Assembly (NCBI GenBank): GCA_043228905.1
Contig: JBHGNT010000006.1
Span: 11,408,001-11,472,000, forward strand
Origin: Azolla caroliniana
Lineage: Eukaryota > Plantae > Polypodiophyta
Length of the DNA: 64,000 nucleotides
Direction of reading: 5' to 3'
Shown here: positions 38,665 through 64,000 of the stretch, in pieces
Layout: every line of letters starts with the position of its first letter
Numbering within the stretch: the stretch's first letter is position 1
Notes under the pieces: generated by a model
Database searches by the model: none
The model's input: only the letters and a program-made list of their open reading frames with translations
Told to the model about the DNA's origin: nothing
Translations under genes and position numbers: made by a program

Positions 38665-38701
38665 GATTCCTGCTTTCTCGCAGCGAACGACGGCTTAATG
38701 G

Positions 38702-41700
38702 ATGACGAGACCAACGCACGACCTGGTTACAGACCGAGCTCGACGCCTCGCCGAACGGCAAAGACGGCGTGAGACTTTCCAGCAAGCAACGCACGAAATT
38801 CGCTCGGATCGTTCGTTCTCCAACGAGATCCGGAGAGTTGCGGAGGAATCTCTTCGGTTACAGCAAACTCGCGACCAGGACGACGGAAGCGGTCTAAGTA
38901 GTCTCCGCGAAACCGAACGCCTCCTCGAGGCGCTGGCAAGCGGAGAAAACGAGGCAGAAGCCTTTTCAGCCTACGAATCGGATTCCGAAGGGGGATACAA
39001 CGTGCACACGAACTACCGGAGCAGCAACGATACCCCCGGCGGCCCGGAGGACGACGGGTCGGATACCGTGCCGACTCCAGAACCGGAACCGTTCGACCAG
39101 GGCTATCCGGAACCGCAAACGGAAGCCGTCAACCCACCAACACCGGAAGTGGAAGAAGCAAAGCCACCAACACCAACGAAAGAGCCGGCGAAGGTACCGG
39201 AAGAAGAGCCGGTGAAGGAACCGGAAAAAGAACCGGAAGAGGAACCGGAAAAAGCACCAGCAAAAGAACCGGAAGTGGAACCGGAGAGAAAACCGGAAAG
39301 ATATCAACAAACGCCACTAAACCGCGGCCTAATACTGGACGACGACATGCCGTTCCAATACTCAAAGTATCGCGATGATCCGGACGCGGAAGCGCATGTT
39401 CATGCCTTCGAGCAGACATGGGAAGCAAATCACGCGTCCCAGCGACTGACACCGGAGGAAGAAGAACGCTCGAAGATAGCGGAATTCGGGGTCACGTTGG
39501 AAGGACCAGCGGCACGATGGCGGCGGACGCAGGACCCGGCGACCATCACAACCTTTGCAGAATTAAAAGCAAAATTCTTGCATTTTTTCCACAAGGAGGT
39601 CGACCAGACGACAATGGTGGGCCTGTTTTATACGATCCGACAAGAGGCAGGGGAAAGCATTCCCCAATTCGTCATCCGTTTCCAACGAATGCATAGCCAG
39701 CTTGCCCGTGCACCCCCGGAGGAGGAATTACGGACGATATTTTTAAACGCACTCCGGGAACCGTTACGCACGGTGTGTACGGTGATCGACTTTCAAGGAA
39801 GCACCATTGACCAGGTCATTGACCGGGTCAGAGAAATGGAAAAGTCAAGCTCATGGCTTACACTGGGAGCACTGCAACGGGCGTTACCCACCGATGAAGA
39901 TCTCCGGTTCCGGCAGGCAATTCAATGCACAATCTGCTTGAATGCCGGACACTCGGCAGTGGAGTGCACCATGCGAACCCAGTGTGTGATTTGTCAATCC
40001 AAGAGTCATACAACGGACCGGTGCGAGTATAACCTGTTAAACCGACGAGCACCACCCGTCCGACGGATCGAGCCAAGAAGCAGCCGAGACGAAGACGAAG
40101 ATCGTTGGCAAAGAATGAACCGGTACCGACCGGCACAGGATGTCCGGTACGGAGACAAACAAGAGAATGATGGCCGGTACGGGGATCGGCATGATAACTA
40201 CGACCGGTATGAGCGATCGGACCGTTATCGGGAGTCCAACAGACGACACGAGCAATACGACAGAGACCATTCCCCTGGTTACCGAAGGCACCAGGAGGAC
40301 TACGACCGATGTTACGATCCACCACGACAGGACTACCGAAATAAAAATAAGAATAATAAGAAACGTAATTTCAAGAAAGGTGGTCACACTAGGGACCCGG
40401 AACATGGAACCCCAAGGAGCCAACCGGCACAAAACGCACCACTCACTACGGGACCGACTCCGGCTACCAGCAATGCTGAATCCAGCAATACCCGTAAAGA
40501 GTACTGCTACTACTGCAGGCAGGAAGGCCACTACAGTAACCAGTGCCCGGCAAAGAGCTACGATAAACGACCAGCAGTTAATATGGTGGTTCCGGAAGTG
40601 GCGGATGTACAACAAGTAACCACACGGTCGAAAGGCATGGCCAAAGAGTGGGAAACACAAGAGGCCATACGAAAATAGGCGACGGAATGGGTGAAGGAAG
40701 CCAATGAAAGGAACGTCGCGGACTCGGAACGACAAAAGGCGAATACCATAGGGAGTGCCGGCGGTAGCCACACAGAAAACGAGACATGGCAAGCACTGCA
40801 AGAATGTCAGATCACGTTGCCATTAGGAAGACTCTTGCAGCTCGTGCCGCGATTTACGGAAGGACTAAAAACGGTCATGACAGACGGTATAGCCCCACCG
40901 GCACCAGTCCTCTTCTCGAATCCGGAGGAGGGACCGACGGTGGTGGACACTAGTAGTCCGGTGATTACAGCTATTGTCAAAGGGCACGAACTTCCCGACA
41001 CAGTAATCGATGGAGGTTCCGGGGTGAACGTAATAAGCCTTCGCACGTGTGATGCCTTGGGTATACATGAATGGGAGCCATGTCCGTTCTGGCTACGGAT
41101 GGCGGATACGAGCTCTGTACGGCCGACGGGCTTAATACGGAAATTGGAGGTCACCATAGGAGGTCACACATTTCACATCTCGGCTGTAGTGCTGCAGCTA
41201 CAGGCGCAAGGCGCGTACCCACTGTTGCTGGGCAGACCATGGTTGAAAACAACACACATCAAGCAAAATTGGCGGAAAAATATGATTACCTTCCGGCGCG
41301 GAAAAGCCAAGGTCCGGGTACCGACACAACCACGGACGAGCAACGGTAAGGAATGCACACCGCTGTATGCGGAATGCGTGAACATGCTTGAAGGGTTGGC
41401 AGACGACGAAGAAGCCCAGTACTTGGAGGAACACCCGAAGATCGTACCACTCTTCGAGATTGACGTAGCTGAAGCCGTAGCGCCATACTTGCCGCAGTGG
41501 GACGAAACCGAAGCCGAACCAGACAAAGATTCGATTCGGGAATTACGGCAAGCACAGGAAGCGTTGGAACGGGAAATGGCCGTTTCCCAACGGGTAAAAA
41601 CATCCCAGCTCGATGAAGTGAACCTAGGAAGCAAGGACGAATCAAAGCCGGTACACATCGCCAAAGAAATGAAGCCGGAAGATAAAGCGGCGATGATCAA

Positions 41701-44584
41701 ACTTCTCACGGAGTTTCGCGACGTATTCGCCTGGTCATACGAAGACATGCGAGGGCTGGACCCTCAATTATATTAGCATCACATCCACTTAGGCAAAGAC
41801 GCGAAACCAGTGGCGCAAAGACGTTACCGAATGAACCCCAACTACGCCGCCAAAGTGAAGGAGGAAATCGACAAACTCCTAAGAGTGGGCTTCATCCGGC
41901 CGGTAAAGAAAGCGACGTGGCTGAGCCCCATCGTCGTCGTCCCAAAGAAGAACGGTAAAATCCGCGTGTGTGTAGATTACAGGAAACTAAATGCAGCCAC
42001 AATTACGGATGCATTCCCTCTTCCGTTCACGGATGGAGTACTGGATGCCGTCGCCGGCCGTGAAGTTTATAGCTTTTTAGACGGGTTCAGCGGATACAAT
42101 CAAATCCGGATGCACCCTGACGACCAGGAGAAGACAACGTTCGTCACTGAATGGGGGGTGTTTGTGGCCGTAGTAATGATGTTCGGACTAAAAACGGCAC
42201 CAGCAACTTTCCAGCGAATCATCATGGAGATCTTCGGCGAATACATTCCAGCCTTCATGCAGGTTTTCCTGGATGACTTTGCAGTCTATAGCCGGGAAAA
42301 AGACCATTTGCAGCACCTACGGTTATGCCTTGAAAAGTGTAGGTTATACCGGCTAAGCTTAAACCCAGCAAAATGCATCTTTGGGGTTTCAAGTGGAATA
42401 TTACTGGGACACATTGTAAGTAAGGAGGGCATTGCGGTCGACCCGGACAAAGTAAACGCGATACTAGGGGCACCGGCGCCGAAAACGGCCAAAGCACTAA
42501 GCCGATTCTTAGGACAGATCCGGTGGCACAGCCGGATGCTCCGTCACTTGGCTGACTTGGCTACACCATTACACACCGCGGTACATCGGACACCGTTGCA
42601 ATGGACGGATACGGAGGATAGGGCATACAATGCCCTGAAGGTACTTTTGTCACAAGCACCCGTCGTGCAGCCTCCGGATTGGAGCAAGGAATTTCATGTG
42701 TTCGTCGACGCTTCCGACATCGCTATCGACAGCGCCTTAATGCAACTTACGGAGCCTAAATGGTACCGGCCGGTATATTACGCTAGCCGGAAGCTGTCCC
42801 AAGCGGAGAAGAACTATTCGACGACGGAACGGGAGGCCCTGGGCATGATCTACAGTGTAACAAAGTTTCGTCATTACCTATTGGGAAGGAAGTTCTCCTT
42901 TCATGTGGATCACTCGGCGCTCCTGTACTTAGTGTCCAAGGCGTCCCTGACCGGTAAGTTGGCTCGTTGGACCTTGCTGTTGCAGGAGTTCGAATTCGAG
43001 ATCTTCCACCGGCCTGGTATCTAGCATGCCGTAGCAGACTACCTGAGCCGGTTAGAGTCCGGAGAATCAGGCGACGGAGTATCGGATGAATTCCCGGACG
43101 CAGAGTTATTCCGTATCACCCCGGAAACGGCAGCGGACGACACGGTGGCATCAGAAGATAGGTGGCTGACAAACATGCACCAGTTCCTAAGCACGGGCCT
43201 GCCACCGGAGGAAATGAACCGGGACGAGAGGAAACGACTGGCGGTGCAGAGCCGCAATTTCTGTCTGTTACGGGACACTCTCTACCACAAGGGAGCAGAT
43301 GGAATATGGAGACGGGCAGTCCGTAGTGACGAGAAAGAAGTAATCTTACGGGAAGCACACTATGGGGTTGCCGGAGGACACTATGCCGGGGAAGCGACGG
43401 CAAGGAAAGTATGGCAGAGCGGCTTATGGTGGCCCACGACGTTAAAAGACGCCGTCAAGTATGCTAAGGAATGTGACCTATGCCAACGAATGGGCCAGCC
43501 TACGGAGCAAGCACGGATGCCACACCAACCGGTACTTCCACTAGAGCCATTCCAGAAGTGGGGGTTGGATTTTGTCGGACCGTTCAAGCCACCGGCAATG
43601 AGAACGGGTAATCGTTATGTCATCGTGGCAACAGATTATTGCACTAAATGGGTGGAGGCTAAGGCCTTGAGAGACAACACCGCGTCATCCACAGCAAAAT
43701 TCCTGTACGAAAACATTTGGTGCCGATATGGATGTCCGATTGAATTAATCAGCGACCAAGGAGGGCACTTCCTCGGCCAGGTAGTTGAAAGCTTAACAAC
43801 GTTCTATGCCGTGGTCCATAAACGGAGCACACCGTACTACCCACAAGCAAACGGGTTAGCAGAGTCAACCAACAAAACGCTCCAGAACATTCTCCGCAAA
43901 ATCGTCAATGAAAACCGGACGGATTGGGATACAAAGCTCCATAGCGCGCTATGGGCGTACCGAACGGCATACAAAACAAGTATCCGGACAACGCCGTTCC
44001 GGTTAGCGTTCGGCTTAGAGGTGGTCATGCCGGTGGAATTTCAGGTACCAAGCTTACGGATCCAACTACGGGAACGGCTGAATGAAAAGGAGTCGGAGGA
44101 AATGCGGCTAGCAGCACTATGCGAACTGGAGGAGCAACGGCTGGCCAACATCCTACACATGGAACTGGAGCAACGACGACGGAAAGCATTCGTTGACCGT
44201 CACCGGAAAGGTAATGAAAAGATGTTCGAAATCGGAAAGCCGGTGCTAGTATTCCAAACGAGGATGGGCAAGATGCCGGGTAAACTCCAGTTTAGATGGA
44301 CAGGCCCGTATTGGCTGACACGGGAATACAACGGGTCCTATCAGTTAGGGACACTTGCCGGTGAAGTGCTAGACAAGTGGGTCAACGGTTTTAGACTAAA
44401 GCCCTATAAAGGACCGATGCCAAGTAACCCATTTATGCAGCCCACCGGCACTATACCGGGAACCTGTCCGGGAACGGTACGGATGGAAGAAAAAGACGAC
44501 GGGGAACCCGTAGCAGAGGCGAAGGAAGACACGGCAACCCGTAAGGAAAACGGTAAGGGTCCGAAGGGACCTACGGATGTGTAA
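38702..44584 (+). CDS. Gag-Pol polyprotein in a single frame, interrupted by 3 TAG codons (40676, 41774, 43022)
   Basis: Gag with three CCHC knuckles; protease VIDGGSGVN; RT FLDGFSGYNQI and FLDDF; RH VDASD; INT WGLDFVGP, SDQGGHF, YPQANGLAE, WTGPY; no chromodomain. Confidence 0.93.
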
Positions 44585-44963
44585 GATCACATACCGTCAT
44601 TTATAAAAAAAAAAAAAGAAAAGAAAAAAAAAGAAATCATTAAAAATCGAGGTATGAACGGACGTGAAAGCAAGGAGCGAAAAGGTACGTAGTGGGCATT
44701 TAAGAGCCGCCACATTACTTAATACTAAATTGGTACACGACGTGCGCATGCTCGAAAAAGGCACCAAGACGCACAGAGAAAAAGCAGAACGCATGGAGAC
44801 CTTTTCATTTCGCGAGCCAAGAAGCACAGAAGCACCAAGGCGGTTGAAGCTTAGCAAACGCGAACCTGCACTCAGAGAACCCCCACGTTCGGAACTCTCT
44901 CTCTCTCGCTCTCACTCTCATCACCACTCTACCTCGCCATCTTTCCTCGACCTCGAAGCAGAC

Positions 44964-47633
44964 ATGGACCCACAAACGCTGTCGGAAGCGGCCAGGAAAT
45001 GGCTCAGGCAACACGGACTGGATGGGTTCTTGACCATCATGGAGGCACCACCGCACAAAGAAGCCGACCGGGTCATCAAGGAGCTCGACACAGAAGTCAT
45101 CACCGAGGAAGCGATCCGTGCGCTAACAGGCCTTCCGGAGGGAGGTATTTTTCAGATCGATAACCCAACCTCGGAGCAACTCATCCGATATTTCGGTGAG
45201 TACTCTCTAGCCGGCAAAGGCTATCGAACGCAGGGCGGCGAAGATCCGCTATTCAGGGAGATAGCTCGAGTGCTCCATGAGTATGGCCACGTGTACCCCC
45301 GACCCCCTGTCATGCCAAAAAATCGGGCAGGGATGATCATAGCCACCTATGAAGGGATCAAGGTGGATTGGCCGGTGTTGATTGCAGACGGTTTGTGCGC
45401 GGCAATCGACACGGTACGAGGAAAGGACGGCAAGGAGGGCCGGAAGCTGTGGCATGCCGTAGCTCAGTGGATAACATTGCTCGCGCCGCCAGTCGAGACC
45501 GTCCAGCCAAAGAAGCGGCCAAGATTATCGGAAGGAAGCACCTCGAAACCTGCGTCCAAACGACAGCAGCTGCTGGCGTCGAAGGCGACGAAAGGGAAGA
45601 AACGGCTCCCAGAACCGGAGGAGGTGTCACCGGTCCGACCCGTTAAGATAACGATACGGCGACCGGGACAGAAGGAACCGGAACCCTTGACGGCACAGAT
45701 ACATGCCGTTACCCAGGAAGAGGAAACGGAGGAGCCAGTAGAGCACCTCCAACGACGGTCAAGAAGTAGGACCGCCGGGACAGCGGGGGAGCGTTCGGAC
45801 CCGCAAAAGGAAGAAACGCCCCCAACTCAACCTGAGCAAACCACAAGGGAGGAACCAGAACCGGTGCGTATAGAACCGGCCTTGTCGACTTCTATACAAG
45901 AAGTCATTGCAACGGCTCCGGAGACGGCGAGAACCGGAACTCAACAGCCGGCGAGCCCAGCCAACACACACAGCGGCCAAGGAGTAGAACCAGAACGGCA
46001 GATACAGGCACTCAGGCCAGACAATTCCACAGTGAACGAGCCGACCCGACCAGTACAGCAGCAAGGCACCAGTAGCATGTGGCTACGGTGGGTAGGCGAG
46101 CAGATCGCCGGAGCGGTCGAGTACATAGAGGCGGAGGAGAGAGCGCACCACGAACGGTTGCTCGTCACAACCGTAGATCTAGAGACGGCCTGGTCCAGAA
46201 TCCGGAGCCTTGAACAAGACTTGGACAGGGTCACAAGGGAAATGGCTCAATTGGCTTTGACAACACAAGTCCAAGCACCGGTGACTCCGGGCAATGTACA
46301 GAATAAAGCGTCAGATCAACCTGTACATAGCAATCAGACCCCGGCAACGGAAACCGTTCCGGAGAGAAATGCGGCACAAGCCCAAGAGCTTGCGGACTTA
46401 AAGGATGAGCTAGCTGCCCAAGAAGCACTGAGGAGCCGCGAAAGAGAGTTGAAGACGGCAGCGGAGGCAGAACCCAAAAAGACTGCTGAGAATCTACGCC
46501 GGGCCGAGGAGAGCTTACGAAAAGGCCACCAAGCGTACGACCGGCTCAAGGAGGAAAAGGAGAAAATGCTGCAAGAGAAGGACAGGCTCCGGAGAAACGC
46601 CGAAACAGAAGTAGAGCGCCTGAAAGAGGAACTCCGGCAGCTAAAGGACCGGGAGGACCGGAACCATCGCCAGATCAACGGCAAGCTCAAACAAAAAACG
46701 GAGGAATTTGAGCACTTGCACCGGGAGTATAAACGGTTGCAAACGGAGCACAAGGAACGGACGGATGAGCTCCGGCAAGCAGTTGATCGGACCGCAACGG
46801 CATACGCTAATGAACAAGTGGAAACCAGAAGACGGTTGGAAGAGGCGGAGAAGGTTCGGACAGAGCTCCTCAGGCAACAGCAGGCGGAAAGAGAAAGAGT
46901 GGCGGAGGTACTGCAGAGGCTGCAGACAACATATCAAGGGCAGCTGACGCGCTATAGAGAGCAGGCGGAGGATACGGCTAATCTCATCAAGCAGTTGAAG
47001 GAGGAACGACAAGTTGTGGAAAGTAGAGCGCAAATGGGAGCAAGTCGCATCCAGGATATCATGCGGGCCTGGTTGAACCAGACCAAGAGCTTGATTGACA
47101 ACGGTTCCGTCAAATGGTGGACCAAGTGGGCCCCGAACGCGGCGGAACTCCAATTGCTCCGGGCCGACGTAGAGAACCGGCGGAAGGAGGGAGATGATTG
47201 CTATATGCTGACTTCCGAAGACTTCACCGGCATAAGAGATGAGCTGGTCGAAGACTTTCAAGCCTTGGCAGAGGACCAACTAGGGCAAGTCCGGCAACTT
47301 GTAGCTCAGCTGGACGACGACAGGCTAGAGGCGCAGATCCAGTTTGAAAGCTACGAGAGGTCCCGGATCCGGGAAGAGAAAGCACGAGAACCAGTAACGG
47401 TCAACCTCAGTGATGAGGAACCGTTACTGGAAGGAGACCGGACCGGAAGCAGTCAAACGGGGATGCCGGAGTCAGAGAAACAAACGGAGCAGCCGCCTAT
47501 AGAGCAGCCGGAGCAGTCTCAGTCCCAACCGCAACCACAGCAGCAGCAGCAAGCACAGCCGCAACAACCACAACCGGAAGAACAATTGGAAACTCTGGAA
47601 CAAAGTATTTTGGACAATTTGGGTGAACAATGA
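44964..47633 (+). CDS. Extra retrotransposon ORF3 (~889 aa): globular N-domain, basic NLS-like motifs, disordered linker, long coiled coil, Q/P-rich tail; function unknown
   Basis: Uninterrupted frame 44664-47633. The likely start is ATG 44964, after a CT-rich leader; upstream in-frame ATGs also exist. Confidence 0.85.
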   Translation: MDPQTLSEAARKWLRQHGLDGFLTIMEAPPHKEADRVIKELDTEVITEEAIRALTGLPEGGIFQIDNPTSEQLIRYFGEYSLAGKGYRTQGGEDPLFREIARVLHEYGHVYPRPPVMPKNRAGMIIATYEGIKVDWPVLIADGLCAAIDTVRGKDGKEGRKLWHAVAQWITLLAPPVETVQPKKRPRLSEGSTSKPASKRQQLLASKATKGKKRLPEPEEVSPVRPVKITIRRPGQKEPEPLTAQIHAVTQEEETEEPVEHLQRRSRSRTAGTAGERSDPQKEETPPTQPEQTTREEPEPVRIEPALSTSIQEVIATAPETARTGTQQPASPANTHSGQGVEPERQIQALRPDNSTVNEPTRPVQQQGTSSMWLRWVGEQIAGAVEYIEAEERAHHERLLVTTVDLETAWSRIRSLEQDLDRVTREMAQLALTTQVQAPVTPGNVQNKASDQPVHSNQTPATETVPERNAAQAQELADLKDELAAQEALRSRERELKTAAEAEPKKTAENLRRAEESLRKGHQAYDRLKEEKEKMLQEKDRLRRNAETEVERLKEELRQLKDREDRNHRQINGKLKQKTEEFEHLHREYKRLQTEHKERTDELRQAVDRTATAYANEQVETRRRLEEAEKVRTELLRQQQAERERVAEVLQRLQTTYQGQLTRYREQAEDTANLIKQLKEERQVVESRAQMGASRIQDIMRAWLNQTKSLIDNGSVKWWTKWAPNAAELQLLRADVENRRKEGDDCYMLTSEDFTGIRDELVEDFQALAEDQLGQVRQLVAQLDDDRLEAQIQFESYERSRIREEKAREPVTVNLSDEEPLLEGDRTGSSQTGMPESEKQTEQPPIEQPEQSQSQPQPQQQQQAQPQQPQPEEQLETLEQSILDNLGEQ

Positions 47634-53808: not shown

Positions 53809-55390
53809 TCAAAATAGTTTTCTTAATTCAGTTGCCTCTTCCACCATTTCCTCTCTTGTACGATCTTTCCTTTGTTCTTCAGCATCCAAACGCTTCTTTA
53901 GTTGTGCCTGCTGAGAAAACAAAAAGGTAAATGTAAGGTGAGACCACCACATTATGACATCAACTAGTAATCAAATGACGATTCATTAACATAGAATGTT
54001 CTGCAAACCTCATCATCAGCATGACCCATATCTGTTGTTTTTTGCAGGTCATCTCCTTTACGAGGTAAAATGTGAATATGGACGTGAGGCACAGTTTGCC
54101 CTGCCTGTGCACCATCCTGTAAAACAAACCCTTGGACAAAATATGTAAATATAATGACATGATAAAAAGCTAACAGCTATAGAGAAATGCACCAACGATG
54201 TTCCTAGTGATTAGTTGCCAAAGTAAACTTGACACAACAAATGAACTGCTTTAAATTCACAATAAGAAAAGCAGGGCAATAAATTAAACAACCTTGCATA
54301 TATTTCTGCAACATCTTATTTCGCACAATACAAGAATTAGCATAAGAGAGAACCTAAATAAGAGGTGGTTGAACCAAACAATCCACTAAAACTGATAACA
54401 GTTCTTTTTCATTCTCGTAAAACCAGATATAACCCAGATTTAATGGTGTCCTGTTCATTATTGTTTTCTCCATGTAATAATGAAGTTTTTCATAAAGACT
54501 AATCAAACCATCTGGGCCGTCAACTAGTGGAAAGGAAGAAAAACCCTGATCTCTTTGAGAAGTCAAAGTTCACCACGAATGACCAATTGAAGACCAAAAA
54601 ATGAAGACTTCACCTGGATGCCGAACGTTACAGAGTTTGCACCATAATGAGGTTCCAATTTAGAAGCTACATTCCTCGCAGTCATCCATAGATCTGTTGT
54701 TTCGGCATCAGTTAAGTTCACCATGCGTGGTACAACGCGCTTTGAGCTCACGAGTACATGTGTGATTTAGTCAAGGATGAACTCGAATCATTCATTTATG
54801 CTAAAACCTTGTATTAATGATATCTTGATCATGAATTGAAAGACACAGACAACAAGTGTTTGTGTGCACTTCCACACCAAATAAAAATGCATGCACAAGA
54901 ATCTTATATGTGATAATTGTACATTTTGTTTAAGTATTCAAGTAGAAATAAAGTTGCCTTACATGTAAAGCCTGCAAAATTGTTTCCACGTGTGTATTCA
55001 CGTAGATAGGAAGTGACTTAGATATGCAAAGATCGTATGTGCTTTATATGCTTCAAGTAAACATGACACATCTTCCATCTGAAAATTGAACTTGTTTTCC
55101 AAGTATTCAAGTATGAATGGAACAAAACCACTACTTTCCTGAAGAGGAAAAAAGAAGGATATGACCTGCATACACAATGCCCATACTTGAGAAAGTAGAT
55201 TTAATAGGAATAGAAACCCATACATGGTCTAAAATTTCAAAGTACATGTCTCTCGGAAATGGTAAAAGAAAAACATCTGACCTGGTACTATTGGCCTCAG
55301 ATTCACAAACGCAAAAGAATATTTGGTTGTAAGAAACACTTCTCCTGTACCGATCTTGTAAGGCCCAAACATAAAATGTTCTTGTGTCGC
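53809..55390 (-). CDS. FHIT: Fragile histidine triad / bis(5'-adenosyl)-triphosphatase (HIT family), 5'-partial
   Basis: Exons 55390-55282, 55165-55163, 54759-54614, 54116-54009, 53910-53809 join in frame: FGPYKI..FAFVNLRPIVPGHVLV..QDGAQAGQTVPHVHIHILPRK..RTREEMVEEATELRKLF*. First exon not located. Confidence 0.9.
54760..55162 (-). other. U12-type (minor spliceosome) AT-AC intron, 403 nt
   Basis: 5' splice site ATATCCTT (55162-55155); branch site TCCTTGAC (54777-54770) about 12 nt before the terminal AC; splicing restores the GHVLV motif. Confidence 0.9.
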
Positions 55391-56153: not shown

Positions 56154-56558
56154 ATGAATGTTACTTTGGAAGAAGAAGCAAAGAGGAAAGCTCGTGCATT
56201 GCATGTACGAGTGGTTGGTTGGGCCGAAAAGGGAAGTCCACAAGAAGATGCCAAGAATCTCGCAACAAAGATTGGAGCATCGGATATTCCATTTGCTTCG
56301 GCGTGGAGAGTGGGAAGAGATGAGTCTAGAGCTAAAGCCCTTATCATCCGCTTCATGGATATTGACAAGAAAAAAGCTTTCCTCTCTAAACGAAACGCAC
56401 TCAAGGGTGAAAAGATATACTTAGATGACGATCTCACTCCAGCCCAAGTGGCACACCGCAAAGAAAACATGCCACGAGTGCTTGATGCAAGAAAGGAAGG
56501 TAAATGGGCCGTATATAGAGACGGCAAGGTCATTATTACAGAGAAGAGAACCACATGA
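56154..56558 (+). CDS. LINE ORF1, C-terminal part
   Basis: Basic ORF1-type motifs AWRVGR, ALIIRF and KIYLDDDLTP; stop 6 nt before the ORF2 ATG. Confidence 0.75.
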   Translation: MNVTLEEEAKRKARALHVRVVGWAEKGSPQEDAKNLATKIGASDIPFASAWRVGRDESRAKALIIRFMDIDKKKAFLSKRNALKGEKIYLDDDLTPAQVAHRKENMPRVLDARKEGKWAVYRDGKVIITEKRTT

Positions 56559-56564
56559 CGATAT

Positions 56565-59500
56565 ATGGCCTATGAGACCCTACGTATGACCATATGGAAT
56601 TGCAACGGCTCTCTACGGACAGATGTCGGATATTTTGAAGATACATTGAAAAACACAGATATTGCTATGTATACAGAGACTCACCAATGTATGGCTAGCA
56701 AACTCCCCGAGGTCCAAGGATACAGATGGGAGTCAATATGTCGCCCCCAACCTCGGACACAAGGAAGCACTAGAGGTTCGGGAGGAGTGGCTACGCTATA
56801 CAAAGAGGAGCTCCATGGTAGAGTGCATGTTGTACATAAGGATGTGGATGCACGCTACATGTGGATATGCATAAAAAGAGGGGATCTTAGGGAGCTATAT
56901 ATTGCAATTTGCTACTTTCCACCTGCCTATTCAAGGTTTGCACCTCTAGGTGAATCACCATATCTACCACTATATGATGATATCATAAGATTTGCTACTA
57001 TTAGGAGATTTTAATGCACGAACCAAGGATGAACAAACAACTATATTTAACACCGACGAGGCTGTCTATGGAGAAGTTATGGTGGAAGAGGTTGGTCTAA
57101 AGAGAAAAGCTCAAGATATGAGTGCTATAACTGAATATGGAAAACACTCTCTAGCCTTGGGAAGCGCGCATGGACTTGTGATATATAATGGCTTGTCACA
57201 ATGGCCTGGATCAGATGCTTTGACATGTTGGAACCCAAAAGGGGGCTCAAGCACAGTCGATTATCTAATGGGATCTCCATCTCTTATACCTGAAATAAAA
57301 GTGTTCATTATATCGGGAAGACCTATTGGCTTGGCAGCTGATCATGCATATCTACGCTTTGAGGTAAAGGATGGATGCACAAAGGATGTATATGCTAAGG
57401 AGAGTGGGCTGGCTAGGTATCTATTCACTCGCGAGACAATTGATGTCTATAGTTGTGGTGTATACAATGGCATGCTAGATTTGGATCCTTTCGCACCCCT
57501 TGAAGAACTTACCCAAGGTTTATCCAAATCATTGCACAAAGCAGCCACAAAAGCCTTCCCTCACACAACGGCTAACCCCCCCAAACTCGGTAGAGTAATA
57601 CAAAATAGTTGGTATGATGATGAATGTCGTGATACAAGGAGATGCTTGCAACGTGATATAACTCGGGGCATTTATACATACAACCAAGCGAGAGCAACCT
57701 TCCAACGCCTCGAAAGGAGGAAGAAGAGATTGTATTTGGCTAAATTTGAAGATCATTTGTATCGCTTGTTTCTAGGACGAGAGAGTAAAAGAGCATGGAA
57801 AATGTTTAATGAGAGGCAACCCACCACACAACTGACCTCACCTCAGGTGTGGCATGAATATGCAAAGGTCCTATATGATACCCCGGGGCAACCTCCTCTT
57901 CCCCACCCAAATGCCTCACGCCCACATGAATCAACCTTCTTTACACCACAAAATGTAAGAAATGCCATTGATAGGCTACAATTCGGGAAGGCCCAAGATC
58001 ATGATGGCTTGGTGGGTGAACACTTTATCTATGCCCGTAACACCTTGCTCCCATTGCTAGCACACATCTTTAATAGAGCCATGTGTGAAGGTTTTCCTAC
58101 TAGATGGACTCAGCATACCATTGTGCCAATCCTTAAGAGTGGCGACCCCATGATGCCAAGCAACTATAGGACAATCATGATTGGCCATTAATTGGCTAAA
58201 CTATATGGCTCGATTCTGGAATCAGAATTGAGTATATGGGCAGAGCAAAATGGCTGCCGTTCAATTGGACAGGCAGGCTTTCGGAAGGGTTTCACAACTT
58301 TGGATCACATATTCACCCTCCGGGCCCTTATTGAGGAGGGCAGAGCCCACAATAAGAGGATTTATTGCTGCTTTGTGGATTTTCGAAAAGCCTTTGACAC
58401 TGTGCCACGTGCTCGGCTTATGCAGCGGCTAGAGGCCATTGGTGTTCCTATAGATATGCAATGGGGAATCTATGCACTCTATGAATCTGTTTCAGGAAAA
58501 GTTCGGTCTCCTAAGGGCTTGTCAAAGGCGGTGGCCAGCACAATTGGCGTGAAGCAAGGATGCCCACTATCCCCCACACTCTTCGGTCTCTATATAGATG
58601 AGGTATCACAGTACATAGAGAGATTTGGTGGTTCCGGAGCACACCTAGCAGGTATAGCTATACAGATATTACTATATGCTGATGATATTGTGCTGATCTC
58701 TGACTCTCCGGAGGGACTACAAAGACATCTAAATGCCTTAAAACTATTCTGTACGGACAAAGGTTTGTCAATCAACATGAATAAAACTAAAGTGATGGTG
58801 TTTAACACCACCCAAGCATGGATAACAAGATCAGAACCAGAATTCTTCTTGGGAGAGGAAAAGGTGGAATACACACGCTCCTACACATACCTAGGAGTAA
58901 CATTTACAGGACCTAGGTTCTCCTTACAGGAGGCCGCTTGTGCCCGACTTTCTCGTGGATATGCAGCCCTGGGTGCTCTCGAAAGACAATGTGCACATTT
59001 GCAGTTCCAAGAGCCACGGACTAAGCTATGGTTATTTGATACACTTGTCACACCAACTCTTCTCTATGGAGTAGAGACATGGGGACCGAGTCTTAACAAG
59101 GCAAATCATTGGAAAGATTTAGAGAGACCTTTAGTGTCAATGATTGCTCGCATGATAAGGAGCAAAGCATCGGTGCCCCACGATATAATCCGGGCAGAGA
59201 TGGGAGTAGCACCTATAATAACCGAGGCATTGTTCCGATCAGTGACATTTATCCAACGTCTTTGGGAGCTTCCTAAACGAAGGTACCCAAGGTTGGCAAT
59301 TATGTCATCAAGACAATTGGCTGAAAATGGAGACACTCACTGTTGGTATGCTGAAATGCAACAATGGTTCGAGTCACATGGCATGAGTATAAATGCACTA
59401 CCCCCGTTCCAATATAGCTTGGACTGTCCCCATCTCAATATGACCAAAGTGGAAAAGAATAGAGTGATCCGAACTGATATTATTAACTTAGAAAACAAGA

Positions 59501-60165
59501 TAACATGGATCAGCCCCAAAATAGCACTTGGTACAAAGATGGCCCACTATAAGACACACTTCTTACATACATTGGAGGATGGATTTGTCATAAGGCCACC
59601 TTATATGGACATACATCTATCCTATGCGCTGCGTAGTGTGATAGGGCAGCTGCGAACCTCATCACATCAGCTACAGATTGAGGTGGGCAGATATACACGA
59701 CTACCTCTAGAAGAGAGAATTTGCCAATTGTGTCATCAAGGAGTGGAATCTGAAGAACACTATGTTTGTCATTGTAGTGTCTTTTATGAAATCAGAGGGA
59801 GATACCATTGCCTCTTTAAACAAGGCTTTGGCCCACTACGCAAGGTAATGGAATATGAGGACCAAAGATGCCTAGGACTTTTCTTGCTCGAGCTCAAGAG
59901 ACATCGGGAAAAGTTGTTGAAGAATACAGCCACACAAGCTCATCCACAAAGAACAATCACAACTTTCTTTAGCTCCATCACTCCTAATGCTAGAAGTCAA
60001 CCCCAGGATACAGAAATGGGATCCAGACCAGGATATAACAAAGGGGTTACGATTGATCGGGCAATGGCAATTTGCCGTGCACGTAGGCCCCGGCCCCATG
60101 GACCACGACCTCGACACCCTTGTCATCGACAAATAAAAGCCATTATCTCCCGCCATCGTAGGTGA
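56565..60165 (+). pseudogene. LINE ORF2 (APE endonuclease, RT, C-terminal Cys/His knuckle) with one frameshift (~57000) and one stop (58189)
   Basis: IWNCNG, TETH, LLGDFNAR, VDY; RT QAGFRKG, FVDFRKAFDTV, GVKQGCPLSP, LLYADD; C-terminal RTSSHQLQIEVGRY..ERICQLC..EEHYVCHC. Confidence 0.92.
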
Positions 60166-60735
60166 TTCCCTCGCTTCGGAGACATTTCCATTCTGGATCG
60201 ACCTATGATAGAGATCTTTCGGAGACAAAAGCTACAATACACCTAACTTGAGAATCTCGCATGTGCCAAAAACCAGATTCTCTCGTCTCTTTTCTTTTCA
60301 TCTTATTTACTTTTATATTTACTGTGTAATATTTACTTTATTTTGATTTGTTCTCAAAGACGAGAAAACATTTAAGATGTAATCTCTTATTCGGTCTTAT
60401 AGGCCATTTTGGCCTCTTAAAAGACGTTAATATATCTTTCTTTCTTTCTTTCTTTCTAGAATTTGCAACGCTTTAAATGCCTTTTCTATCTTCCACTTTT
60501 TCCAAGATATTCCCTCTTATTCCTAGTTTATTGTACCTGTTTGGTAGTACAAGAGTCACTTAACTACCAAACAACCATTTCACCCAATTTTGTATAAATA
60601 GGCTATACCAGCCTCTTTTGTAAAGACTTTTACTTTTGTTGCTACTTGCAAACAAGCTTTACTGTTTGGCTGTGTCTCTACTCTTTGCAACCATTTTAGT
60701 TACTGCTGTCTAACAGCCTTCTCACAGCTTGGCTG

Positions 60736-61030
60736 TGTCTATTTTGTTCCAACGATTGTTCCGCTGCTGCTATTAACAGCTTTTCTCACATGGTATCAGA
60801 GCAGTGAGGTCTCCATATCCTCAGCCTGATTTTTTTTGCGAAAGAGCACACATACCGATCTTCTTTTATCCCTCCCTCCCAACTGTCTATTTTGTTCTAA
60901 CAGTTGTTCCGTTGTTGCTATTAACAACTTTTCTCACATGGTATCAGAGCAGTGAGGTCTCCATATCCTCAGCCTGATTTTTTTGCCAAAGAGCACACAA
61001 CCTATCTTCTTTTATCTCTCTCTCCCAACC
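60736..61030 (+). repeat. 148-bp tandem duplication of the LTR end, PBS and leader
   Basis: ttctcacaTGGTATCAGAGC at 60791 and again at 60939. Confidence 0.93.
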
Positions 61031-64000
61031 CTATTGAGGAGGTTCTCTTAGCAACCACCCTCCCAACCTACAGAGGGGGTTTTTCTTTTTTCTTTTCTCC
61101 TCAAATAAAAACCTTGCTACGGTACCATCGTCTATGGAATGTAGTCAATGGTAGTGACAAGAAACCAGTGGTAACTTCATCCTCTTCAACCAAATCAGTT
61201 GCTGGCTCAGTTAACACTGAGATTGAAGCTTGGCTAGATAAGGATTCTTGTGCTCATGCTTTCCTCGTGTTTAATATTAAACCGGGCATCGCTCATCAAT
61301 TTCAAGATACAGATGAAGAGACAACCAATGAACTATGGGCAGCCATCAAATAGCGGTATCATCGAGCTAATCATGCTCAAATGATAGCTATTGTGAACCA
61401 ACTAGCAAATCTCAAGATTCATGACACTCTCAACATCATGGATCAAACAATGCAATTTGTTACTCTCCAAAGGGAACTAGTTTCTTTGGGAAGCAAGTCA
61501 ACCGAAGTTGAGTTTGTGCATCGTTTAATGATCAAGTTGCCTGAGTCATTCTCAGCCTTTTGCGACACAATTTCTCTTCTTCCCAATGCACCTGATATCA
61601 ATACATTTCTTGGCATGCTACAAGACAGGGCAACAAGGAAGAAAAGTGCTCAAACTTCCAATGAGACGCTTCTACATGCGAAAAGTGAAGGCAAGTGGAA
61701 GCAAAATGGCAACTCCTAAAGCAAACCCAATCCAAGACCACCAAACAACCCAGTCTACAAGGAGCTCACTTGTCATTATTGTGGCTACAAAGGTCACATT
61801 CAGCCTGACTGTTGGAAAAAGAAAAGGGACAATGCGAAGAAATCTTCTTCTACCGAAAGTCAACCTACACCAAAATCAAACTCGGTCCACTCAGCCAAAG
61901 AAACAATTTTCCTTGGCATTGAGGAACATTCTTCACATTTGGCTGGAACAACTACTTCAACCACTGAGGAGTGGTTAGTAGATAGAGGTGCCATTGCACA
62001 CATGACTTATGACAAATCCATTTTGTATGATGTAAATTCTAGCTCCTCCCAAAGCTCCATAGGAGATGCCTCAAGCATTGAGGCTTCATGTGTGGGTAAT
62101 GTGTTTCTTAACACTTCTTCAAATGACACACCTGTCGTTCTTCAAGATGTGCTACATGTGCTTCGCATCTCTACCAACCTACTTTAGATCTACCAAATCA
62201 CTAAGCAAGGTTATGGAGTCTACTTTGATAGCTCAGTTTTGGAAGTCATTGACACCAACAGCCAACAAATTGTAGCTAGTGGCACACAAGAAGTGGGTTT
62301 ATGTCACCTGAAAAGTTTATCTCATCTTCTTCAAGGCTCTCATGCCTTGGTGGCACAAGAAGACCCCACGTGGCGTGCTAGGTTCGGTCACCTCCATTAC
62401 AATTCTCTAAAGGTAAAGAGGGATGTTTGAGGGAGCAGCTATTGAGGAATGATGTTCAGCAAATAGGACTGTAATAGAGATGAGAGTAGAGACACAGATT
62501 TTTGGTGTACCCAACCGCCTTGATTGGTACACAAGAAAAAAAGGTTATTATATTAGTTAACCCTAAAAAGAAAGAGGAGTGTTCACATTACAAACAGAGG
62601 TGTCTTGTTCAGGTGAACAATGTGTTCATATATACGAATAATCACCTAATTTGTGAACTACGGGCCTTTATACGTGACATTCTCTACAAAAGCTCTCCTC
62701 TTCACAGCCTATTTTCAAAACTCCCAATACCCCATGTGTTGCTTGTCTTCATGGCGAGCAACATTGAGAGCCTTTTCCTCATGAAGCCACTCACTGTGCA
62801 ATATCTATCTTGGAGTTAGTGAAAACCACTACTCTTGGTGGTGCTTGCTACTTCATGCTTATTATTGATGATTCCTACCGTAAGGTTTGGGTTTATTTTC
62901 TTGTAGAAAAATCTCAAGCCTTTACCAAATTTCAAGAATGGGTAGCTCTTGTGGAGAACGAGACATCAAAGAAAGTTCGAAAGATCAGGACTGACAATGG
63001 TGGAGAGTTTTGATGGGATTGGATCACAGATCTGTGGGAAAGACCAACTAAAATACACACGAATGCGGAAACAGGGAAAAACAGCAAATGCACAAAATGC
63101 ACAAACAGCATTTACAGGTGTAAAGCCCTCAATATCTTATTTTAAAGTCTTTGGTTGTAAAGCTTATGTTCACATTTCAGACCATAAAAGGACTAAATTT
63201 GAGTCCAAACCCAAGAAATGGAAATTTCTTGGTTACAACACACAATCTAAAGCCAACAGGTTATGGGATTTAGAATCAAAGTCCCTAGTCACCTGAGTCT
63301 AAGTCGGATGACTCTAGGATTTCACCTGAGTTCACGGTTGAAATCCCAGCTCCTCCGGAATCTCCTATTTTAGACGAAGATGTCTCACCTTCAAGCCCCC
63401 CATCTCCTCCTACTCAACCTCTAACTTCGCCAACAATTCAAACCTCTCCCTCAACTCCACTCGTTTCCCCTCCCTCTACACACCAGCTTCCACCACTTCC
63501 CACGTGGCTTCAAGCCACCATTCGTGATTCTCATCTCTCTGATGCTGAACTTCATGGTATACATCTAGTTCTCCGACCAACATGAAAAGAACACATAGGT
63601 CACAACAGCCTCTTCACTCATGCAACTTTGCCTTACTGTGCACTGTTGTGCAATTACAAGAACCCACAACAGCAAAAGAGGCCCTTGTTCTTCCAGAGTG
63701 GAAAGCAGGAATGGAAGTTGAACTTGATTCCATTGAGTGGAATCATACATGGGAGCTGGTCCCACGGCCTCAACATCAACAAGTCATTGACTGAAATGGA
63801 TGTTCAAGACTATGTACGATGCTGATGGTACTTTGGATAAGCACAAGGCACGTTTAGTTGCAAAAGGCTACTCACAAGTGGAAGGAGTGGATTACGAGGA
63901 AACGTTTGCTCCAACAGCACGGTACACCTCTATTCGATATGCCCTTGCACTTCCTGCTCACAACAAATGGCCCATCTTTCAAATTGATGTCAAGTTAGTC

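Follow-up and report, generated by a model that had tools for sequence, protein, structure and literature searches.

We found that the trinucleotide GTC in the FHIT gene of the window, the whole 64-kb stretch of DNA analyzed here, is very probably a true, constitutive 3-nt exon of plant FHIT. It is likely spliced in two steps, in which the upstream intron (intron A) is removed first and the downstream intron (intron B) is then removed by the slower minor spliceosome. The exon combines two known kinds of element, a micro-exon and a U12-type AT-AC intron, is conserved across land plants, and is apparently undescribed. The original prediction of a 3-nt exon between a U2-type intron and a U12-type AT-AC intron proved correct to the base (Table 1). 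Such an exon is a natural minimal substrate for studying how the major and the minor spliceosome share one RNA, and with 3 nt between the U2 acceptor and the U12 donor, their order and coupling can be tested by single-base changes.

Table 1. Exons, introns and splice signals of the FHIT gene in the window, listed 5' to 3' along the minus strand
Feature	Position	Strand	Remarks
Upstream FHIT coding exon, 109 nt	55282..55390	-	Ends with Pro and the first G of Gly; contig cover in 8/8 runs
Intron A, 116 nt, GT-AG (U2-type), phase 1	55166..55281	-	GTCAGA..ATGCAG, acceptor TGCAG; excised singly in X4, X5, X7
Micro-exon GTC, 3 nt	55163..55165	-	Supplies the last two bases of Gly and the first of His (equivalents of human Gly34/His35)
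Intron B, 403 nt, AT-AC, phase 1	54760..55162	-	U12-type signals, features per PMC3584512
U12-type 5' splice site ATATCCTT	55155..55162	-	No other ATATCCTT on this strand within the window
U12-type branch site TCCTTGAC	54770..54777	-	Branch A 11 nt before the terminal AC
Coding exon 3' of intron B, 146 nt	54614..54759	-	Pfam HIT positions 29-75, E 0.003, under the curated cut-off
Histidine-triad exon (HVHIH)	54009..54116	-	Transcript contigs, Pfam and PDB matches
Final coding exon, ending at the stop codon	53809..53910	-	Joint 53910->54009 in 4/4 runs (X1, X2, X3, X8)

In the spliced reading frame, inclusion of GTC gives P-G-H-V-L-V and its omission P-D-V-L-V, in agreement with the claim that skipping would turn Gly-His into Asp. 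The U12-type 5' splice site consensus is RTATCCTT, and intron B opens with a conserved site of this type and has the termini AT..AC, one of the pairs (AT-AC and GT-AG) found in U12-type introns. It also carries a CCTTRAC-like branch site with the branch A 11 nt from the acceptor and has no pyrimidine tract; the optimum for the branch-to-acceptor spacing of U12 introns is about 11-13 nt (PMC3584512). Judged by these signals, intron B is likely excised by the minor (U11/U12) spliceosome. The motif YAG-GNC-ATATCCT occurs once in the 64-kb window, both strands considered. When the 522 nt that separate the two exons were shuffled 200,000 times at the mononucleotide level, YAG-GNC-RTATCCT appeared at a rate of 6.5e-5 and a branch motif within the last 40 nt at 0.009. 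Local RNA structure near the micro-exon was no better than that of shuffled sequences (z -1.06), and a mechanism based on folding was dropped on this account.

The identification of the gene as FHIT is backed by Pfam, by PDB matches, and by alignment to human Fhit. The triad exon matches the Pfam HIT family (PF01230, E 1.2e-6), and the top PDB matches are Fhit entries; an HxHxH triad together with FHIT as the closest solved relatives places the gene in the FHIT branch of the HIT proteins. The protein of a fern-ally relative aligns with human Fhit without gaps over 122 residues, and this alignment puts the Gly-His at human Gly34-His35. A tree built from a short alignment places the window gene together with Adiantum, a fern (96/82 and 98/92). 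A protein search with the 146-nt exon gave no match at E <= 1e-8. GTC does build P-G-H-V-L-V, as had been proposed, but the His of this motif is the equivalent of human His35 and not a histidine of the HxHxH triad, which is encoded two exons downstream of the micro-exon. Plant Fhit is known to have Ap3A hydrolase and adenylylsulfatase activity (PMC4613722), and FHIT has been linked to translation control in Arabidopsis (PMC12461873); the accessible text of both papers deals with FHIT function only.

To follow splicing, we used contig joints. Eleven runs were found, none of them recorded as RNA, and eight were used, all as assembled contigs. They stem from relatives or from the same organism, bear the type label 'RNA?' (a guess) or '?', and served for contig joints only. 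Assembled contigs give presence, not absence or levels, and missing cover over intron A in X1, X2, X3, and X8 was not counted as evidence. In each of these four runs, which come from four studies, contigs join 54758->55278 and splice the two downstream introns canonically. Because this join skips 519 nt, the mature form retains 3 extra nt. The mature joint that retains them was also present in 2/4 runs of the X4-X7 set. The three letters in mature contigs do not alone prove an exon, because they duplicate the outer splice sites: GTC equals the donor GT of intron A plus the acceptor C of intron B, so that the mature read fits perfectly as one non-canonical intron, and in the window gene GTC also equals the first three bases of intron A. 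Reads across the junction, put forward with the original prediction as a check, thus keep the 3 nt as expected, but the mature junction cannot decide, since it aligns mismatch-free as a single intron. Stronger evidence for the exon comes from contigs of a close relative in which intron A alone is removed and from the invariance of TGCAG|GTC between species.

The partly spliced contigs come from X4-X7, which represent one study of a close relative (organism D) and whose contigs are mostly less than 95% alike to the window. A joint 55161->55278 (skip 116, CT..AC at cut +4), which corresponds exactly to intron A, was listed in three of these four runs. One X4 contig (record 4) spans the upstream exon, a retained intron B, and the next exon, and X6, for which no joint is listed, has a contig with intron A unspliced. 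None of the joints listed in the eight runs excises intron B alone: the upstream junction is seen singly in 3/4 runs, and the downstream junction only inside the ambiguous mature join. Contigs retaining intron B are abundant in organism D; they may be dead-end retention products, and a B-first intermediate may be too rare to assemble. In several of the runs X4-X8, we also noted loose ends at window positions 54655 and 54615, where shared sequences leave the 146-nt exon internally; the organisms concerned may have an alternative splice form or a second locus.

Based on these contigs, we propose the following route. The major spliceosome would usually remove intron A first, as the A-only contigs of the close relative suggest, and the invariant, optimal acceptor TGCAG|GT probably speeds this step. 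Removal of intron A would fuse GTC to the 109-nt exon and so create a 112-nt exon, which could serve the U12 donor as an ordinary 5' exon; the minor spliceosome, being slower, would then likely remove intron B. The two spliceosomes would never be needed 3 nt apart at once, because GTC would already be joined to the upstream exon. Skipping would delete Gly-His and is probably prevented by the mismatch between the GT donor and the AC acceptor. U12 introns splice more slowly and GT-AC pairs are disfavored (PMC3584512), which would explain both the A-first order and the absence of skipping. Of the forced order that had been presumed, removal of A first is seen in X4, X5, and X7, but compulsion was not borne out.

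Conservation of the arrangement was assessed by a DNA scan with the upstream exon, which yielded 193 confirmed stretches; the best 80 of these gave 78 loci with 81 exon matches, 82 together with the window. Forty-one matches show intron A followed by 3 nt and a U12 donor, 8 intron A alone, and 22 neither. The other 11 were left unclassified and excluded from the cluster counts: ten stop before the site, and in an alga-like locus (L012:4100) the intron lies elsewhere, a few codons upstream of where intron A would be. At 95% identity, the 41 full-arrangement matches form 15 clusters, which do not amount to 15 independent observations because they are related and include paralogues. Among these land-plant clusters (best 80 of 193 stretches), the acceptor TGCAG and the micro-exon GTC are found in 15/15 and ATATCCTT in 14/15. 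The AC acceptor of intron B is present in all 14 clusters whose sequence extends that far, and the branch A lies 10-14 nt from AC in the 13 other scored cluster representatives (L027 included). Intron A is between 85 and about 1800 nt long in the 15 clusters, and it starts with GTA in 9, GTC in 3, GTT in 2, and GTG in 1. As a control, the acceptor of the next intron is TGCAG in 0/12 scored clusters; L027, one of the three unscored, has TGCAG by eye. The third base of the Gly codon is T in 15/15 micro-exon clusters, compared to 1/13 intron-less alga-like clusters and to 6/24 at two other Gly codons taken as a control.

In the tree, the 14 clusters included join the ferns, the Selaginella/Marchantia rows, or the angiosperms. 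The suggestion that the exon may be conserved in other plants is thus upheld by half of the exon matches (41/82), in 15 land-plant clusters that range from fern-like to angiosperm, and the arrangement, being common to fern-like, non-seed-plant-like, and angiosperm loci, is old as judged from these sequences. The eight intron-A-only matches form five clusters; these loci and most of the intron-less ones are GC-rich and lie apart from the named land plants in the tree, from which we infer that they are algae. Two land-plant-like loci, L014 and L046, are without both introns. L014 is a copy of the L027 gene from which some introns have been spliced out, whereas L046:1119-1361 is an intron-less, stop-containing FHIT copy that reads G|GTC|ATG and is likely a processed pseudogene preserving the spliced junction. 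In a very close relative (L004:817-1445), ACATCCTT replaces ATATCCTT at the U12 donor, Gln takes the place of Pro ahead of the Gly, and intron B has a 96-nt insertion at the same place as an insertion in the organism D contigs; this locus may be a copy in decay or may carry a natural AC-AC U12 intron. The legume-like loci L015, L017, and L050 (together with the overlapping L032/L033 and L035/L036) hold tandem FHIT paralogues about 4 kb apart, with the micro-exon in both copies where the sequence extends there.

One alternative agrees with the two-step route in every respect except that it denies constraint. It holds that the exon is real and the order free, that A-first is seen merely because U12 introns are slower, and that the exon, a frozen accident without coupling or regulation, persists since loss of a single intron is rare and skipping is blocked. 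We consider its chances about even. Either sequence of removal would resolve the micro-exon sterically, and in organism D the next GT-AG intron is retained at a contig depth similar to that of intron B, contig depth being a poor measure. Moreover, L014 has lost introns A and B and keeps the next GT-AG intron, so that intron B is not always the final step. What the free order leaves aside is the presence of TGCAG and of the synonymous T in 15/15 clusters, which points to selection on the acceptor of intron A beyond that on the neighboring intron's. In addition, plant micro-exons flanked by GT-AG introns tend to detain the upstream intron, according to the accessible text of PMC8831610, which is the reverse of the situation in FHIT, where the retained intron is the downstream one.

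The opposite possibility, which follows the original prediction, that an obligatory A-then-B order makes the exon a regulated, rate-limiting control point of FHIT, for instance through U2AF/U2 on the acceptor of intron A masking the U11 site, appears unlikely. Intermediates are seen solely in the A-first form, the abundant B-retaining contigs of organism D would lead to an early stop (10 codons into intron B), and a published model treats slow U12 splicing as rate-limiting (PMC3584512). However, another intron lags behind intron B in L014, and retention of U12 introns is general and requires no micro-exon. The model of the Selaginella RefSeq isoform X1 (P0085) keeps intron B, in frame and stop-free, which adds about 28 residues between G and H-V-L-V, so that its retention there would cause no early stop.

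We give very little credence to a productive path without the micro-exon, in which a single non-canonical intron of 519 nt is excised, with the A-spliced form as a by-product. The three nucleotides would then be GT from the donor side plus C from the acceptor side or, in the window fern, GTC from the donor side. The mature read is indeed mismatch-free in this form in every species with GT..AC ends, and the alignment tool itself assigned the ends TG..TC to the join 54758->55278. These ends, however, suit neither spliceosome. A single intron also does not account for the invariant TGCAG|GTC|ATATCCTT block, for a branch site located 10-14 nt from AC, or for splicing exactly at the acceptor 55166. 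We rejected it because of its non-spliceosomal ends, the invariant internal block, and the A-only contigs. The least probable alternative is a recursive, zero-length exon at AG|GT (55167-55164), from which the re-created donor CAG|GTCATA would remove the remainder: this donor closely resembles the original CAG|GTCAGA, but the mature contigs keep GTC, which contradicts such a site for the main product, the downstream acceptor is AC, and none of the joints listed for the eight runs connects the re-created donor with a nearby AG. Recursive use could occur as a minor error path in minor-spliceosome mutants. The FHIT site shares with recursive sites, as described in the accessible part of PMC13149111 (AG|GU zero-nucleotide exons), an internal AG|GT that serves as the first-step acceptor, and differs from them in that the second step takes a U12 donor 3 nt downstream, so that 3 nt remain in the mRNA.

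That gene predictors would miss the exon was also anticipated, and 12 NCBI models, from Marchantia to asterids, break at the site. Of 76 protein matches to the upstream exon, these 12 (from Adiantum, Marchantia, Amborella, Iris, Aquilegia, Rhodiola, Melastoma, Nyssa, Vaccinium, Penstemon, Handroanthus, and Cichorium) read G-H-I-L and then continue into unrelated sequence, as predicted if the micro-exon is read into the donor ATATCCTT. Because all 12 are NCBI genome models, they reflect the conserved U12 donor, and their interpretation as transcript-derived intermediates was ruled out. PGHIL alone is not diagnostic, since G-H-I-L occurs naturally in 11/120 full-length proteins (best 120 of 1177) and in Psilotum P0082; we therefore counted only models running into unrelated sequence. 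In P0057, intron A is read through in frame to A-G-H-I-L. Among the best 120 of 1177 full-length matches, 97 have G-H-V/I-L, 22 deviate at the site (GN 8, VH 6, AH 3, LH 1, other 4), and 1 was unscored. A three-base shift of the junction would produce GN and VH/AH/LH. Most public FHIT proteins are thus right at the site, whichever junction their models use; many models are nevertheless shortened or have wrong residues at the conserved Gly-His, which matters for cloning and study of the gene. The site is a blind spot in two ways: aligners can call one non-canonical intron mismatch-free, and the main plant micro-exon survey, going by its accessible text, left out AT-AC flanks.

Conserved micro-exons of 1-15 nt are known in plants, for example those of 1 nt in APC11 and VPS55 (Yu et al. 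2022, PMC8831610; MEPDB, PMC12409088). As far as the available parts of PMC8831610 describe them, the FHIT exon, whose 3 nt lie within that size range, resembles them in being a tiny internal coding exon, old in land plants and often misannotated, with flanks that are removed consecutively. Unlike those in that catalogue, which comprises GT-AG and GC-AG introns only, its downstream flank is AT-AC, and the exon therefore lies outside the catalogue. Intron B, in turn, resembles the DROL1- and TTL-dependent AT-AC introns of plants (10.1101/2020.10.19.345900, 10.1101/2025.02.25.639993, in their accessible portions) in its ends, its conserved donor and branch site, and its short branch-acceptor distance, and is unlike them in that its 5' exon measures just 3 nt until intron A is removed. 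FHIT is unnamed in the accessible main text of these two preprints, to which our search was confined. Interaction between neighboring major and minor sites is likewise known from U2/U12 crosstalk (USSE in SNRNP48/RNPC3, MAPK8/9, and MAPK12 skipping; PMC8329584, accessible part), where a U2 donor can pair with the acceptor of a U12 intron upon failure of minor splicing. Those cases, unlike FHIT, use normal-sized exons and exon definition, which would be impossible at the FHIT micro-exon because 3 nt leave no room.

Our literature search found no description of the exon, although the databases U12DB, ERISdb, IAOD, and MEPDB, as well as Araport, may hold the intron or the exon, and it found no work joining FHIT, a U12 intron, and Arabidopsis. 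The accessible text of Yu et al. 2022 and its supplements does not mention HIT, U12, or AT-AC; that of the MEPDB paper (PMC12409088) and of PMC12780178 contains nothing on the exon, and no U2/U12-flanked micro-exon appears in that of PMC8329584 and PMC13149111.

With regard to its origin, the arrangement most likely arose through the arrival of a U2 intron 3 nt ahead of a U12 intron that was retained by animals as well. We take the U12 intron of human FHIT to be intron 5, located after coding base 103 (103/104) and followed by a 146-nt exon, and presumably the human gene has no intron 3 nt upstream of it. On this assumption, human intron 5 and plant intron B would interrupt the His35 codon after the same base, and the downstream exons would be equal in length. 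A search for published confirmation of the human exon boundary found none. The human U12 intron is thus probably at the same codon as intron B; if this position is right, intron B predates the plant-animal split, a U12 intron shared by plants and animals that has switched subtype. As for what is published, human FHIT contains a U12-type GT-AG intron of about 523 kb (chr3:59999879-60522592, hg19) according to the accessible parts of PMC6800510 (Table S3) and PMC8280824 (supplement). Human FHIT is therefore like plant FHIT in having a U12 intron in the orthologous gene and unlike it in the subtype (GT-AG) and size of this intron.

Alga-like loci have intron A at the same position, which suggests an early coexistence of the two introns in green plants and a loss of intron B in alga-like lineages; parallel gain of intron A in those loci is possible. 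A broader reading, which we put forward tentatively and consider somewhat less probable than not, is that the hybrid micro-exon dates from the green-plant ancestor, that its U12 intron, which would be the 523-kb intron of human FHIT, is ancestral to plants and animals, that the minor spliceosome can act only once the major one has left the site, and that the exon is one of an unseen class of the form GT..AG|GTC|AT..AC. If true, exons of this class would be invisible to mature RNA-seq, their letters duplicating the outer splice sites.

Upstream of the exon at 55390, the window contains a LINE-like element (RVT_1, E 2e-32, ORF 58192-60165) at 56200-60200 (+) and, by eye, a copia-like element at about 61000-64000. 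Because the preceding FHIT exon, known from the transcripts of relatives, was not found in the 64-kb window, both elements probably lie in a long first intron. Downstream of the gene, at 38699-47633 (+), long reading frames with a retrotransposon gag and a zinc knuckle mark an LTR retrotransposon.
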